A program made the position numbers and the translations under genes. Under the pieces are notes generated by a model. The model was given only the letters and a program-made list of their open reading frames with translations. It was not told the origin of the DNA and made no database searches. DNA of 64,000 nt. Source: Candidatus Woesearchaeota archaeon (GTDB lineage Archaea; Nanobdellota; Nanobdellia; Pacearchaeales; GW2011-AR1). Shown piece by piece: positions 1,823-45,862 of the stretch. The stretch is from positions 161,420 to 225,419 of the forward strand of contig CAYLOQ010000001.1 of NCBI GenBank assembly GCA_964385425.1, given 5' to 3'. Positions within the stretch are counted from its first letter, which is position 1, and each line of letters opens with the position of its first letter.

Positions 1823-2608
1823 TTGGATAAAATGAAAAAAGTCATTGTTATCACATCTGGGAAAGGGGGTGTAGGGAAAACCACAACAGCCATAAATCTG
1901 GCTTCAGCCATGAATAATTTTGGAGAAGATGTTCTGGTAATCGACGGGAATTTGTCTACTCCTAATGTGGGTATCCATTTAAATTCTCCAGAAGTCCCGA
2001 TAAACCTGAACCACGTACTAAAAGGAGAGGCAGATGTATTTGAAGCCGTTTACAGACATGAATCTGGAATAAAAATAATTCCTTCGTCCTTATCTGTCAA
2101 GGAATTAAAAAAAACAAGGCCTGAAAAAATGAAAAAATTCAAGAAAGATTTTAAAAAAATGGCAAATTATATTATCGTTGACAGTTCTGCGGGGTTGGGC
2201 AATGAAACAACTTCTGCTATGGAGTTAGCTGACGAATTAATCATAGTGACAAATCCTGAAATGCCTGCGCTCACAGATGCCTTGAAAACCATAAAGCTAG
2301 CAGAAGAACTTGGAAAATTGGTCTTAGGTGTTATTGTGACAAGAGTTAAAAAAAATGATTTTGAAATGCAGCCGGAAATAGTCAAAGAAATGTTAGAAAT
2401 CCCGATCCTTGGTATGGTCCCTGAAGATATAGCTGTTCAGAAATCAATAAGCCAAAAAGATGCAGTAGTTCATGTATATCCAAAAAGCAATGCAGCAAGG
2501 GCGTACAAAGAGATAGCTGCAAAAATGCTTAACGTAAAATATGACTCCAAAAAAGATCGTGAAAAAATGATTATAAGGATTCTACAAAAACTTGGTTTGA
2601 AAAAGTAA
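1823..2608 (+). CDS. minD: MinD/ParA-family ATPase (probable ATG start at 1832)
   Basis: Deviant Walker A SGKGGVGKTT; DGNLSTPNVG; typical archaeal MinD layout. Confidence 0.9.
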   Translation: MDKMKKVIVITSGKGGVGKTTTAINLASAMNNFGEDVLVIDGNLSTPNVGIHLNSPEVPINLNHVLKGEADVFEAVYRHESGIKIIPSSLSVKELKKTRPEKMKKFKKDFKKMANYIIVDSSAGLGNETTSAMELADELIIVTNPEMPALTDALKTIKLAEELGKLVLGVIVTRVKKNDFEMQPEIVKEMLEIPILGMVPEDIAVQKSISQKDAVVHVYPKSNAARAYKEIAAKMLNVKYDSKKDREKMIIRILQKLGLKK

Positions 2609-2748
2609 GTCAATTTCATTCACTTATTATTGCCTCACTAACGTTCGTAATTTTTTAAGTTATTAATGTAAATTCTTATTTATTAAAAGTCAAAAGTTGG
2701 GGGGTTGGTGGCGGATAGATTTAAAAACAATTTTAAACAAATCCAAAC

Positions 2749-3099
2749 ATGGAGAATATAAAATTTTCTGGCTGGCAAAAACTTGATTTAAGAACGGGAA
2801 AAATTCTTTCTGTAGAAAACGTTGAAGGGGCTGACAAGCTTTACAAAATTCTTGTGGATCTTGGAAAAGAAGAAGGCAAAAGAACTCTAGCAGCAGGACT
2901 AAAGCCATACTACAAAAAAGAAGAGCTTATAGGAAAAAGCTGCATTGTCTTCACAAACCTTGAGCCAAAAACTCTAAGAGGAATCGAAAGTCAAGGGATG
3001 ATTCTAGCTGCAGTCAGCGACCATGAAAATGGCTCAGAAAGCAAGGTAAGACTTTTACAGCCAGATGAAGATATAGAATTGGGAAGTAGAGTTAGATAA
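2749..3099 (+). CDS. tRNA-binding OB-fold protein (MetRS C-terminal/Trbp111/CsaA-like)
   Basis: LDLRTGKILSVE..GADKLY..VDLG; NLEPKTLRGIESQGMILAA. Confidence 0.88.
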   Translation: MENIKFSGWQKLDLRTGKILSVENVEGADKLYKILVDLGKEEGKRTLAAGLKPYYKKEELIGKSCIVFTNLEPKTLRGIESQGMILAAVSDHENGSESKVRLLQPDEDIELGSRVR

Positions 3100-11546: not shown

Positions 11547-11680
11547 TGAGCCTGCACGGATTTGAACCGTGGACCCCTACCTAGCTGAGGATAAGAAAAT
11601 ACCCTTATCAGAATCACCTTCTGCTTGACTTTTATATCAAGGCAGAATGTAGTGCTCTAACCAGGCTGAGCTACAGGCTC
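11547..11680 (-). tRNA. tRNA-Ile(GAT) with two introns: 30/31 (36 nt, 11613-11648) and 37/38 (23 nt, 11583-11605)
   Basis: Acceptor GAGCCTG/CAGGCTC+A73, D arm GCTC/GAGC, T arm CACGG-TTCAAAT-CCGTG. Removing both introns gives a 75-nt cloverleaf with anticodon arm CTACT-CTGATAA-GGTAG; both junctions fit BHB geometry. Confidence 0.9.
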
Positions 11681-11704: not shown

Positions 11705-11712
11705 ATTTATAA
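11705..11712 (-). promoter_or_regulatory. Probable TATA box of tRNA-Ile, overlapping the stop codon of the LAGLIDADG gene
   Basis: TTATAAAT on the minus strand 25-32 nt upstream of tRNA G1. Confidence 0.5.
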
Positions 11713-12372
11713 GTTTTGTGAATTCAAAAATAAATTATATTTTTTAATATGCTTTGGATTCTTAGGTCTAATGTTTTCTATAAATTTATGAAACATTTTA
11801 ACACCCCTTATTGAAATAACATAAGCTCTTTGTCTTTTAGCATCTTTATTGAATAATTCGGAATGTCTTGTAACTCTAAAACCCAATTCTGATAATATCT
11901 GAAGAAGTTGTTCTGAAAGTTTAATAGAAATGGTTCTCATCTCCATCCTGGGATATAACTTTTTATTTTTCTTCTCTAAATAAATTCCCCCGTCAGTATC
12001 GAAAAGTCCCCTAATAATAGAAATCTTAAGATCCTTATTTTCAAAAAAGAGAGAAGGGATAGAAATATCAAACTTTTTTCCCAATGGAAGTCCTAGCTTT
12101 TGTTTAAATCTGATTAAATCATCATTCCAAATCTGAAAACCAAAAACTCTTGTAGAGGGCATCTTTCTCAAGCTTATATCAATATCATAAAGAAGCTTAA
12201 AGATTGGTTTAACTCTCTCTACATAATGAGGTTTATCATCTTCTATGTGACCTCTAAGTTGATATATTCCCCTTAACTTTCCTTTATTATTGTAATAATT
12301 CATGCTCCCATCACCTACATGCCAACCAACTTCCTCTGCTAATTCTTTAGTTATTTTTCTTGGGATATTCAT
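11707..12372 (-). CDS. Free-standing two-motif LAGLIDADG homing-endonuclease-like protein
   Basis: LAEEVGWHVGDGS and IIRGLFDTDGG motifs about 105 aa apart. Confidence 0.85.
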   Translation of the reverse strand: MNIPRKITKELAEEVGWHVGDGSMNYYNNKGKLRGIYQLRGHIEDDKPHYVERVKPIFKLLYDIDISLRKMPSTRVFGFQIWNDDLIRFKQKLGLPLGKKFDISIPSLFFENKDLKISIIRGLFDTDGGIYLEKKNKKLYPRMEMRTISIKLSEQLLQILSELGFRVTRHSELFNKDAKRQRAYVISIRGVKMFHKFIENIRPKNPKHIKKYNLFLNSQNL

Positions 12373-26909: not shown

Positions 26910-26959
26910 GCGTCCGAGGAAGAAAAATTAGATATTAAAAAATTAGAAAGAAGATGTAA

Positions 26960-26985
26960 TAAAAAAAGAGCCCCGATAAGGGGCC
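26960..26985 (-). terminator. GC hairpin plus U-tract downstream of tRNA-Asn
   Basis: GGGCCCC-TTATC-GGGGCTC followed by a T-tract on the minus strand. Confidence 0.6.
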
Positions 26986-26994
26986 CGAGATCCA

Positions 26995-27123
26995 CGTTTC
27001 CCGTTTACTTATGACATATAAAGCCGTAAGCAAAACCCGGGTAGGACTCGAACCTACGACCTAACGGTTTCTACGAAATAAAACCTAACAGCCGTTCGCT
27101 CTACCAGACTGAGCTACCGGGAC
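26995..27123 (-). tRNA. tRNA-Asn(GTT) with two introns: 37/38 (17 nt, 27069-27085) and acceptor-stem 70/71 (38 nt, 26998-27035)
   Basis: 5' GTCCCGG, D arm GCTC/GAGC, anticodon arm AACGG-CTGTTAA-CCGTT after splicing, T arm GTAGG-TTCGAGT-CCTAC. Splicing at 70/71 restores CCGGGAC+G73. Confidence 0.85.
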
Positions 27124-27195
27124 TTAACAATCTTAAATTATGTTTACTTTTAAAGATTACTAATTTCTTTAAAATCCACCATAAAAATTTTTAAA

Positions 27196-29320: not shown

Positions 29321-30421
29321 ATGAAAAAATCAAAAGTCCTTGTAGCAATGTCTGGCGGCGTGGATTCTAGTGTGGCAGCGCTCTTGGCTAAAAAAGCAGG
29401 ATATGAAGTAATAGGGGCTTTCATGAAAAACTGGAGCGATACAAAAGATCCAATCACAGAGGAATGCTCATGGAAGGAAGATAGAAAAATAGCTATGAAA
29501 ATTGCTGCAAGACTGGAAATTCCACTCATCACATTAGATTTTGAGAAAGAATACAAAGCCTTGGTTGTTAACGAGATGTTCAAAAATTATAAGAAAGGCA
29601 TTACTCCAAATCCAGATATAGACTGTAATCAAAAAATAAAATTCCCTTTTCTGTGGGAAGCTGCAAAAAAACTAAAAGCGGATTTCATTATAACAGGGCA
29701 TTACGCGAGGATAAAAAAAAATAAAAAAGAAAAGTACGAACTCCTAAGGGCCAAGGATGAATCAAAAGATCAATCCTATTTCCTCTACAGGTTAAATAAA
29801 AATGACTTGAAACACTCCCTATTCCCGATTGGAGATTATACTAAAAAGAGAGTTAGAGAAATAGCCCACAAAAACAACTTCCCAAATTTTGATAGAAAAG
29901 GCACTGTAGGGATATGTTTTATTGGAAAAATAAACCTAAAAAAGTTTCTGCAAAAAAAGATTAAACCAAAAAAGGGAAAAATTTTCGATCCTGAAAGGAA
30001 AATTATTGGTGAGCATGACGGAATATATTACTATACGATAGGCCAAAGACTAGGACCTAGATTTGGAATAGAAATTAAAAAAGGCAAGGGAAAAGTAGAA
30101 AGATGGTACGTGGCTTCCAAAAATTTAAGAAAAAATGAAATTATAGCTGCCCCCATAAACCACCCTCTTTTGTATCGTAAAGAGATCATAGTAAAAAAAC
30201 CACACTGGATTTCAGACAAACCAAAGAAGAATAAAAAAATAAAGGTTTTGTCTAGAATAAGACAGGTCGGAGAACTGCTTCCAAGCAAACTCTCTTATGA
30301 TAAAAAGAAAAAAAGATTCGGAGTTGTTCTAGATACACCCATTACAGGAGTTTCAGAAGGCCAGGCAATTGTTCTCTACATCAAAGAAAAAGTTCTCGGG
30401 GGAGGTGTGATTGAATTTTAA
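29321..30421 (+). CDS. mnmA: tRNA U34 2-thiouridylase, bacterial MnmA type
   Basis: AMSGGVDSSV, TPNPDIDCN..IKF, TGHYA, KDQSYFL, GICFIG, YTIGQR, GQ..VLY. Confidence 0.95.
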   Translation: MKKSKVLVAMSGGVDSSVAALLAKKAGYEVIGAFMKNWSDTKDPITEECSWKEDRKIAMKIAARLEIPLITLDFEKEYKALVVNEMFKNYKKGITPNPDIDCNQKIKFPFLWEAAKKLKADFIITGHYARIKKNKKEKYELLRAKDESKDQSYFLYRLNKNDLKHSLFPIGDYTKKRVREIAHKNNFPNFDRKGTVGICFIGKINLKKFLQKKIKPKKGKIFDPERKIIGEHDGIYYYTIGQRLGPRFGIEIKKGKGKVERWYVASKNLRKNEIIAAPINHPLLYRKEIIVKKPHWISDKPKKNKKIKVLSRIRQVGELLPSKLSYDKKKKRFGVVLDTPITGVSEGQAIVLYIKEKVLGGGVIEF

Positions 30422-45753: not shown

Positions 45754-45862
45754 TAGGCTCGGGGGGATTCGAACCCCCATCGGCCGGGTTTTTCAAAATA
45801 TTTTATGGTAATCATAAACTAAATTCCGAAACCGGACATTCTATCCGTTGAAATACGAGCCT
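45754..45862 (-). tRNA. tRNA-Arg(TCG) with a 37-nt 37/38 intron (45789-45825)
   Basis: Acceptor AGGCTCG/CGAGCCT, A20, G37, T arm GGGGG-TTCGAAT-CCCCC; intron GAAA pairs with T32-C35, followed by the AA|C bulge. Confidence 0.85.

Follow-up and report, generated by a model that had tools for sequence, protein, structure and literature searches.

A predicted tRNA-Asn intron between positions 70 and 71 in a DPANN archaeon, with a complementary trailer and a neighbouring family of LAGLIDADG genes

Background

Short introns in archaeal tRNA genes, defined by a bulge-helix-bulge (BHB) fold at their junctions and presumed to be removed by the endonuclease EndA and an RNA ligase, have been found at a range of positions. 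A 2014 review places the non-canonical examples from 20/21 to 59/60 'etc.', and terms that at 3/4 in Thermoproteales 'an extreme case' (PMC4090602). Here we describe the tRNA-Asn(GUU) gene on the minus strand (27123 to 26995) of a 64,000 nucleotide (nt) stretch, hereafter the window, from contig CAYLOQ010000001.1 of a Candidatus Woesearchaeota archaeon (assembly GCA_964385425.1). The gene has two inserts, one at the canonical site, 37/38, and the other at 70/71, and is followed by a trailer complementary to its 5' acceptor strand; in relatives, it is often adjoined by an open reading frame (ORF) for a predicted LAGLIDADG endonuclease. The 70/71 insert resembles the Thermoproteales introns in being short, BHB-defined and a presumed substrate of EndA and ligase. 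It differs from them in its lineage, a Pacearchaeota-like member of the DPANN, in the pairing of the trailer with the 5' acceptor strand and, relative to the intron at 3/4, in interrupting the 3' strand of the acceptor stem just 3 nt from the mature end, with the discriminator split off.

Relaxed forms of the BHB motif have been described in other DPANN archaea. The 59/60 intron of ARMAN-2 pre-tRNA-Cys is likewise short, sits at a non-canonical site on the 3' side and has a relaxed hBH motif, which an epsilon2 EndA cleaves (PMC3239211). In both this intron and that of the window, one bulge is flanked by two helices; however, the ARMAN-2 intron lies in the T loop and its cleavage has been verified in vitro, whereas that of the window lies in the acceptor stem, has the opposite half of the motif relaxed and is predicted from sequence. 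DPANN EndA variants, including those of Pacearchaeota, have been associated with disrupted tRNA genes and incomplete tRNA sets (PMC5829648), and tRNAscan-SE 2.0 extends its candidates by 60 nt for introns near their ends (PMC8450103). In the split and permuted tRNA genes of Nanoarchaeum equitans, Caldivirga, Thermofilum and Cyanidioschyzon, pairing of leader or trailer sequences assembles the splice substrate (PMC4033280, PMC3218864). Pairing of flanking sequence would similarly present a BHB to EndA here, but the window gene is contiguous and its trailer pairs with the mature 5' acceptor strand, from which the true 3' strand would later displace it.

Introns may also be accompanied by endonucleases encoded outside them. 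Collaborative homing is exemplified by F-CphI with the psbA group I intron of cyanophage S-PM2, and by T4 mobE with I-TevIII (PMC6083498, PMC2790892). The present locus shares with these systems an endonuclease gene beside the interrupted gene, an intron without an ORF and presence/absence polymorphism, and the window lineage seems to have lost the endonuclease gene while keeping the intron. By contrast, it would involve a protein-spliced BHB mini-intron in an archaeal tRNA gene rather than a self-splicing group I intron in a phage gene, the enzyme is of the LAGLIDADG type, and the likeness is one of association (nine of 13 ORF-adjacent tRNA-Asn genes have a 70/71 intron and two more a T-loop intron). 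I-DmoI-type enzymes, encoded inside BHB introns of archaeal rRNA genes, have the same monomeric double-LAGLIDADG fold as that predicted here and are also archaeal and linked to a BHB intron in a stable-RNA gene. The genes described here nevertheless lie outside the intron, on the opposite strand, encode an extra N-terminal domain of approximately 110 residues and accompany a tRNA gene.

Results and discussion

The insert at 70/71

The tRNA-Asn gene can be divided into the following parts.

27086 to 27123, minus strand: exon 1, positions 1-37, comprising the 5' acceptor strand GUCCCGG, the D arm, the 5' strand of the anticodon stem and the anticodon (ARAGORN, Rfam RF00005)
27069 to 27085, minus strand: canonical 37/38 BHB intron, 17 nt (GGUUUUAUUUCGUAGAA; GGTTTTATTTCGTAGAA), an anticodon-loop insertion in Rfam, with geometry read by hand
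27036 to 27068, minus strand: exon 2, positions 38-70, ending C66 C67 G68 G69 G70 (sequence, folding)
26998 to 27035, minus strand: putative 70/71 intron, 38 nt, between G70 and A71 (TTTTGCTTACGGCTTTATATGTCATAAGTAAACGGGAA; sequence, folding, shuffles, homologous copies)
26995 to 26997, minus strand: last exon, 3 nt, A71 C72 and the discriminator G73, with CCA not encoded (joining to G70 gives the 3' end of the orthologues)

The minus strand reads GTCCCGG TA GCTC AGTCTGGTA GAGC G AACGG CTGTTA before the canonical intron, which has a homologue in a relative, L001 (L numbers are our labels for loci), and A CCGTT AGGTC GTAGG TTCGAGT CCTAC CCGGG from there to G70, which is base 27036; the last exon, ACG, is followed by TGGATCTCGGGCCCCT TATCGGGGC TCTTTTTTT. 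If the 38 nt are not removed, the acceptor stem contains U2.U71 and G1.U72 and the discriminator is U. ARAGORN, which in default mode reports this as the sole tRNA of the window (tRNA-Asn(GTT), 27032-27124, minus strand), and Rfam RF00005, which also calls tRNA-Asn(GTT) at 51.7 bits, both read through ...CCGGG-TTT in this way, together spanning 27032/33-27123/24 (minus strand), with the 2:71 mismatch flagged by Rfam. Removal of the 38 nt gives the acceptor stem GUCCCGG/CCGGGAC plus G73, and ARAGORN identifies the doubly spliced sequence as a 74 nt tRNA-Asn with 7/7 Watson-Crick acceptor pairs and G73. The predicted junction, marked with a slash, is ...CCCGGG/ACG-CCA (UCCUACCCGGG/ACG-CCA).

The insert consists, in order, of U, an inner helix of 8 bp (UUUGCUUA/UAAGUAAA) with its loop, CGGG and AA. 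The CGGG pairs with C65-G68 (27041-27038), which double as the 5' strand of a 4 bp central helix. This is flanked by bulges of 3 nt on opposite strands, G69 G70/U on the 5' side and A A/A71 on the 3' side, and the predicted splice sites fall after the second base of each, as in the BHB motif. The outer exon-exon helix h is absent (A64.C72), such that the motif departs from the strict hBHBh' form, while the intron-intron helix h' is present, with 6-8 bp that covary among the ten copies described below. The motif thus takes the relaxed form known as HBh' or bulge-helix-loop, which is accepted as belonging to the BHB family (PMC3239211, PMC4090602). Local folding recovered the T arm, central helix and inner hairpin. 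Among 200,000 shuffles of the 120 nt downstream of G70, 183 had ACG with the central helix alone, and 0 combined these two, at a consistent offset, with an inner helix of 5 bp or more.

An initial annotation of this DNA had proposed a BHB-type insert at 70/71 with a 3 nt last exon, and this is borne out by the sequence, by uninterrupted orthologues and by nine more copies of the insert. The geometry it described is exact, both in the sequence and in local folds, it was correct in regarding the motif as relaxed through loss of the outer helix, and the full acceptor complementarity it expected on excision (CCGGGAC plus G73) is that of the 74 nt tRNA-Asn. Its expectation that standard finders would call the gene truncated or a pseudogene did not hold, as ARAGORN and Rfam gave a normal tRNA with a wrong 3' end.

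The uninterrupted orthologues come from 80 metagenomic contigs gathered through the KH-domain protein encoded beside the window's tRNA-Asn gene, in most of which a tRNA-Asn gene lies directly downstream of the KH gene in either orientation. Approximately 47-55 orthologous tRNA-Asn genes at this KH/eIF-1A locus have an uninterrupted 3' end, ...CCGGGACG or a compensated variant; every one has G73, with the 3' end ...GGGACG, and the tRNA is followed by TTTT. The 3' end of L012, GTAGGTTCGAGTCCTACCCGGGACG, is identical to the predicted spliced 3' part of the window tRNA, and the spliced sequence matches L005, L012 and L054 in 71-72 of 75 aligned columns (95-96%). Relatives hence encode the predicted mature sequence directly. 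Synteny based on the neighbouring peptidase gene was tried and set aside in favour of that based on the KH protein: the tRNA-Asn 3' end is uninterrupted in L001, the relative with the most similar peptidase (77% identity), and synteny was lost in the others.

Conservation and covariation

Nine further distinct tRNA-Asn genes with an insert at exactly 70/71 were found in Pacearchaeota-like contigs, first among the KH loci and then through the neighbouring ORF, giving ten copies including that of the window. The lengths of the further inserts are as follows.

L017, L029, L068 and L144: 38 nt
L059: 37 nt
L151: 39 nt
L147 and L154: 23 nt
L158: 27 nt

Variation in length, from 23 to 39 nt, is confined to the distal stem and loop of the hairpin; the bulges, the central helix and the first six pairs of the inner helix are kept in all ten, and the 23 nt and 27 nt variants are reduced to the BHB core, having lost the distal part of the hairpin. 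The L158 copy has a differing hairpin sequence, the acceptor stem GCCUCGG and the last exon GCG.

These copies conserve a structure rather than a sequence, in the same register throughout. In an alignment of the ten (A2), anchored by hand at fixed offsets from the splice sites, the BHB helices and four T-stem pairs have standard pairs in 140/140 cells, against 37-59% in slid controls. Six pairs show double-sided changes, and the observed values were reached by 0/500 shuffles, a count that, given the relatedness of the ten sequences, is not a probability. Position 65 is C in five copies and U in five, with the intron base opposite following as G or A (C-G, U-A), and its T-stem partner at position 49 (G or A) tracks it in every sequence. 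Read across the intron, the acceptor stem pairs in every cell, with pair 2:71 being U-A in nine copies and C-G in L158, whose last exon is GCG. The result was the same in a natural alignment of the first five copies. The central-helix pairing at this site, for which the initial annotation had recommended a search of related genomes, is therefore both kept and covarying in the ten copies.

The sequences that flank the gene are similarly conserved.

27147 to 27155, minus strand: TATA-like archaeal promoter box (CTTTAAAAG), approximately 25-33 nt upstream of tRNA position 1
26961 to 26969, minus strand: U-rich run (UCUUUUUUU), likely pre-tRNA terminator (sequence; arrangement common to all copies)

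A AACTTTAAAAG box lies at an equal distance upstream in the other intron-bearing loci examined; the box presumably serves as a promoter, and the U-rich run would act as a terminator.

These data bear on whether the gene might instead be damaged, a small deletion having taken A71-C72-G73, with the CGGGAA-ACG further downstream a coincidence and a functional copy located elsewhere. CCGGG followed by TTTT in the window does resemble the tRNA followed by TTTT in uninterrupted orthologues, and the tRNA scan covered the 64 kb window of a 505 kb contig. However, the arrangement has been retained in ten distinct lineages, where changes in the proposed helices and across the splice junction are compensatory, the chance expectation is less than 1 in 200,000, the promoter box and terminator are conserved, and the gene occupies the syntenic tRNA-Asn position, with no second copy in any locus examined. 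This degree of conservation and covariation is hard to reconcile with either a pseudogene or a chance resemblance, and we consider a damaged gene very improbable. The interpretation of the insert as a BHB intron is, on these sequence comparisons, strongly supported.

Searches by pattern were less informative. In species-representative genomes, a pattern for the 70/71 intron (T loop, N8, TTTTG, N20-32, AAACG) gave 59 matches, all of them by chance and outside tRNA genes. A pattern taken from the canonical intron, AGAGCGNNNGGCTGTTAGG...GNAGNAACC, matches the window and L001 and had no match in the genome or metagenome contig collections, being too lineage-specific. In default mode, ARAGORN missed two of the three tRNAs of the window. 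With the intron option switched on, it missed all of the multi-intron tRNA-Asn genes of the relatives, which were located by regular expression and by eye.

A trailer complementary to the 5' acceptor strand

Between the last exon and the U-rich run are two further features.

26979 to 26994, minus strand: variable spacer, separating the last exon from the trailer element and forming a hairpin with the latter in the window
26970 to 26978, minus strand: trailer element UA-UCGGGGC, complementary to tRNA positions 1-9 (GUCCCGGUA) with two G.U pairs

The spacer is 12-24 nt long and poorly conserved across the ten copies. By contrast, the 7-mer YYGRGRC (UCGGGGC, 26970-26976, in the window) is present in 10/10, preceded by UA in 9/10 and followed in all by one to five bases and then the U-run. 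It can pair with tRNA positions 1-7 in 70/70 cells, its variation consisting almost entirely of transitions that keep G.U or Watson-Crick pairing; with the UA, the helix covers positions 1-9, U8-A9 pairing in 9/10 copies. A 7/7 match within 48 nt downstream was found in 10/10 genes with the 70/71 intron and in 2/47 distinct genes without it. Both this closing helix and the BHB form in unconstrained minimum free energy folds of the full precursors from the window, L151 and L158, and the fold in which the two are forced is at least as stable as a partial cloverleaf for 7/10 precursors.

The trailer probably tethers the 3 nt last exon to the body of the tRNA during cleavage and ligation, to judge from this complementarity, and may also sequester the 5' acceptor strand, leaving positions 65-68 available for the central helix. 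Covariation is only suggestive for both roles, with a single compensatory change in the trailer helix (C4-G in the window, U4-A elsewhere). That the trailer element might itself be the true 3' acceptor strand was also weighed, but we rejected it: G73 is found in all of the orthologues but a G never follows the element, and an insertion of approximately 70 nt between positions 65 and 66 would also be required.

The absence of a G after the element in any of the ten copies likewise argues against its being simply the old 3' end of the tRNA, which is relevant to a further alternative. The insert and trailer duplicate could be a neutral scar left by mobile DNA at the tRNA 3' end, through endonuclease-induced break repair or as the footprint of integration and excision, in which the insert, still a spliced intron, is tolerated as EndA can remove it and the trailer is the displaced original 3' end (CGAGAC plus a T-run) with no part in processing. 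In its favour, the trailer element looks like a 3' acceptor strand with a T-run behind it, a LAGLIDADG gene is linked to the locus, the tRNA 3' end is partially duplicated further downstream at several intronless tRNA-Asn loci, and covariation in the trailer helix is statistically weak. A passive scar would not readily account for variation in the element being made up of transitions that keep pairing with positions 1-7, for the base in the place of G73 never being G, for pairing that reaches U8-A9 in 9/10 copies, or for how a 3 nt exon with no other obvious means of attachment would be held during splicing. The scar is accordingly unlikely, though it still commands an appreciable minority of our confidence; trailer-aided splicing is the reading we prefer.

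The partial duplicates were seen in L025, L037, L064, L070 and L075, where a second partial copy of the tRNA 3' end is found 60-110 nt downstream of an uninterrupted tRNA-Asn. They look like att-type direct repeats around a small insert, and the 3' end of tRNA-Asn seems to be a mobile-DNA hot spot in this lineage. The initial annotation had raised the use of the tRNA 3' end as attB by integrases. No evidence of this was found, and an integrase att site was rejected as an explanation of the 70/71 insert, as an integrase is absent and the mobile gene linked to the tRNA encodes a LAGLIDADG endonuclease.

The neighbouring LAGLIDADG gene

An ORF of approximately 350 residues is convergent (tail-to-tail) with the tRNA-Asn gene in nine of the ten intron-bearing loci, its stop codon sitting at the U-run of the tRNA. 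The family had no match to any Pfam family at E-values up to 1 and no significant sequence match in PDB. It is homologous to another protein of the window (11707-12372, minus strand), which belongs to LAGLIDADG_3 (PF14528; E = 9e-9), a domain also carried by distant database relatives of the ORF. An AlphaFold2 model of the family (42 members) has a predicted local distance difference test score (pLDDT) of 94.9 and contains a monomeric double-LAGLIDADG fold, with two alpha-beta-beta-alpha-beta-beta-alpha units and two LAGLIDADG helices. Its best Foldseek matches include I-DmoI (probability 1.00, target-normalised template modelling score 0.72-0.79, root-mean-square deviation 2.7-3.0 A), others being LAGLIDADG enzymes and maturases (bI3, I-AniI). 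The motifs G129-D130-G131 and D236-T237-D238, each with the acidic residue expected at the end of a LAGLIDADG motif, are invariant in the 42 members, and we take their acidic residues to match D21 and E117 of I-DmoI. The family is thus predicted, from this model, to comprise I-DmoI-like LAGLIDADG endonucleases.

In every contig gathered through the ORF family, a tRNA-Asn gene adjoins the ORF. Counting distinct genes, with phylogeny ignored and the ORF-positive set partly gathered through the ORF itself, nine ORF-positive loci have the 70/71 intron and four do not, while among ORF-negative loci one (the window) has it and approximately 62 do not. Introns of other kinds are also found beside the ORF. 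In L146 (approximately 2576-2740, plus strand) and L157 (minus strand, downstream of the ORF at 1201-2271), the tRNA-Asn has D-loop, canonical and T-loop introns and an intact 3' acceptor strand; the T-loop inserts lie approximately 10 nt upstream of the 70/71 site. The tRNA-Asn of L011 has a canonical intron only. That of L149, from a Nanoarchaeota-labelled metagenome-assembled genome (GCA_030648155.1), is interrupted in its anticodon loop by a group I intron (2624-2815, minus strand; RF00028, 81.3 bits, E = 2e-19). All 39 archaeal group I introns of Nawrocki et al. are in rRNA genes (PMC6125680), and that of L149 may be new as well.

Possible mobility of the locus, and a relic of the endonuclease gene in the window

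Loci with the ORF and intron are scattered among loci without them in a tree of the KH protein, and one such difference is found between near-identical genomes. The flanks of L039 and L151, formed by the KH gene and a nitroreductase gene, are 97.5-99.6% identical. Between them, L039 has only an uninterrupted tRNA-Asn, and L151 has the LAGLIDADG gene, an intron-bearing tRNA-Asn and an ORF of 144 residues; the two tRNA-Asn alleles are just 82% identical. The cassette is thus polymorphic for presence or absence within a single population, where the tRNA allele has also been replaced.

The window itself retains a trace of the endonuclease gene.

26916 to 26969, plus strand: relic of the last ~17 codons of the ORF family (EEKLDIKKLERRCNKKR), from DNA and protein alignment with L059, L017, L151 and others

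These 54 nt, right after the stop codon of the KH gene (26909), align with the C-terminus of the ORF family (GRLDIKKLEEICKKR in L059); at the DNA level, the similarity extends for approximately 50 nt before breaking off into the KH gene. The endonuclease gene was therefore once present in the window lineage and has been deleted from it, with the intron and trailer left in place. The pattern across loci fits the cycle of invasion, fixation and loss of homing endonuclease genes, and mobility of the cassette is suggested by the L039/L151 polymorphism, the patchy distribution and the loss of the ORF in the window.

The same observations can be set against the possibility that the LAGLIDADG-like protein has been domesticated as a host factor, either a maturase-like RNA chaperone or a regulator of pre-tRNA-Asn, with the intron inherited vertically and repeatedly lost. 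A family of approximately 100 full-length members, 42-88% identical and sharing a conserved N-terminal extension of approximately 110 residues, could be expected of such a factor, as could the structural matches to the maturases bI3 and I-AniI and the persistence of the gene beside tRNA-Asn whatever introns the tRNA has. Yet the acidic residues of both LAGLIDADG motifs are invariant, the ORF and intron are scattered over the KH-protein tree, near-identical genomes differ by the whole cassette with tRNA alleles that are only 82% identical, and the ORF has been lost cleanly from the window. Furthermore, to our knowledge, BHB introns require no maturase. We therefore regard a domesticated factor as improbable and favour a mobile endonuclease.

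Proposed processing and spread of the intron

Taken together, it is highly likely that the 38 nt are a genuine BHB intron at 70/71, spliced with the aid of the trailer, and are part or a remnant of a mobile endonuclease cassette. Transcription would proceed from the TATA box through the intron, the 3 nt last exon and the trailer of approximately 25 nt to the U-run. In this precursor, the 5' acceptor strand (positions 1-9) would pair with the trailer, leaving C65-G68 free for the CGGG of the intron. The resulting 4 bp central helix and two 3 nt bulges would have the inner hairpin on one side, and the T stem may stack in place of the missing outer helix on the other. EndA would cut after the second base of each bulge and an RNA ligase would join G70 to A71, whereupon the continuous strand 66-72 could displace the trailer; only then would the 3' cut after G73 and CCA addition follow.

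The cassette would comprise the tRNA-Asn allele and the convergent, free-standing I-DmoI-like gene, with the intron either part of it or left over from it. Were it to spread by collaborative homing, the endonuclease would cut uninterrupted tRNA-Asn genes near the insertion site, while the intron would shield the copy that carries it and be co-converted; in the window lineage, the endonuclease gene would since have been deleted. Such an archaeal form of collaborative homing, in which an I-DmoI-like enzyme targets the 3' end of uninterrupted tRNA-Asn and a trailer-aided BHB intron at 70/71 both gives immunity and spreads by co-conversion, is a tentative proposal that we hold at somewhat below even chances.

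Several points weigh against these interpretations. The anatomy of the locus, its conservation and covariation, the linkage and the presence/absence polymorphism are observed directly; we infer splicing itself, the role of the trailer and the target of the endonuclease, and the activity of the enzyme is a prediction. As the outer exon-exon helix is missing at the 3' splice site, cleavage needs an EndA that accepts relaxed motifs, and the intron begins with UUUU, which might cause some premature termination. A second intact tRNA-Asn may lie beyond the 64 kb scanned. The 70/71 intron is not obligatory beside the endonuclease gene, being absent from four ORF-adjacent tRNA-Asn genes. The trailer element was located by its motif, and the covariation in its helix is weak, amounting to one double-sided change, which was reached by 48/500 shuffles. 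The hand construction of A2 and the relatedness of its sequences belong here too.

Genomic context and other tRNA genes

The window is approximately 33% G+C, and its proteins have their matches in DPANN archaea of the Pacearchaeota, Nanoarchaeota and Woesearchaeota type. Its tRNA-Asn gene lies between the KH-domain gene (plus strand), part of an aIF2-beta/DUF5679/DUF424/eIF-1A/KH cluster, and an M2/M3 peptidase gene (minus strand). A MnmA-like ORF (a bacterial-type tRNA 2-thiouridylase; 29321-30421, plus strand) and an MsrB-like ORF were recognised from their translations a few kb away, and in L005, L006 and L012 the apparent start of the same MnmA-like gene was seen by eye right after the tRNA-Asn. 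In L001 (2324-3601), tRNA-Asn has the opposite orientation and is flanked by two small ORFs, of 256 and 135 residues, that are missing from the window; judged by eye, the former has a helix-turn-helix and restriction-endonuclease-like (DUF559-type) appearance.

Two other tRNA genes in the window are interrupted. That for tRNA-Ile(GAT) (11547-11680, minus strand) has BHB introns, read by hand, at 30/31 (36 nt) and 37/38 (23 nt), and the former means that this genome already relies on splicing at a non-canonical site; D-loop and T-loop tRNA introns are found in relatives. Together with the DPANN EndA variants noted above (PMC5829648), such introns give indirect support to a host EndA that may tolerate relaxed motifs. 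The gene is unreported by ARAGORN in default mode and labelled tRNA-Arg with the intron option. The LAGLIDADG_3 protein mentioned above (221 residues) is encoded by a gene ending 27 nt upstream of it, which makes this the second case in the window of an endonuclease gene that accompanies an interrupted tRNA gene. The tRNA-Arg(TCG) gene (45754-45862, minus strand) has a canonical intron of 37 nt, also read by hand, together with the mismatches U10.U25, in the D stem, and U27.C43; it too is unreported by default, and is labelled tRNA-Pro with the intron option.

Conclusions

No mention of a tRNA intron at 70/71 was found in the accessible literature, which lay outside the primary catalogues of intron positions, nor did the literature searched mention a comparable trailer element or the pairing of a BHB tRNA intron with a free-standing LAGLIDADG gene. 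We judge the 70/71 intron to be real and, as a positional variant of the archaeal tRNA intron, probably new, and its interest is raised by the trailer-assisted 3 nt exon and the linkage to a mobile endonuclease cassette. For annotation, the read-through by ARAGORN and Rfam means that a mismatched acceptor end and a wrong discriminator are reported for this gene, and introns near the 3' end may partly explain the seemingly incomplete tRNA sets of DPANN archaea, a problem that has been noted previously (PMC5829648).

For the host, the acceptor stem could not form, nor could 3' trimming, CCA addition and aminoacylation take place, until splicing had occurred. Pairing with the trailer offers a testable answer to how a 3 nt exon is held, and would be a new kind of cis-acting helper for EndA substrates. 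The link to a LAGLIDADG gene, the polymorphism within a population and a lineage representing the state after loss make a homing-type gain of BHB introns testable biochemically. If true, collaborative homing would be a directly observable mechanism, at the level of DNA, by which BHB introns are gained at new positions in tRNA genes, and the group I intron of L149, beside the same endonuclease gene, would make the locus a link between group I and BHB introns as well.

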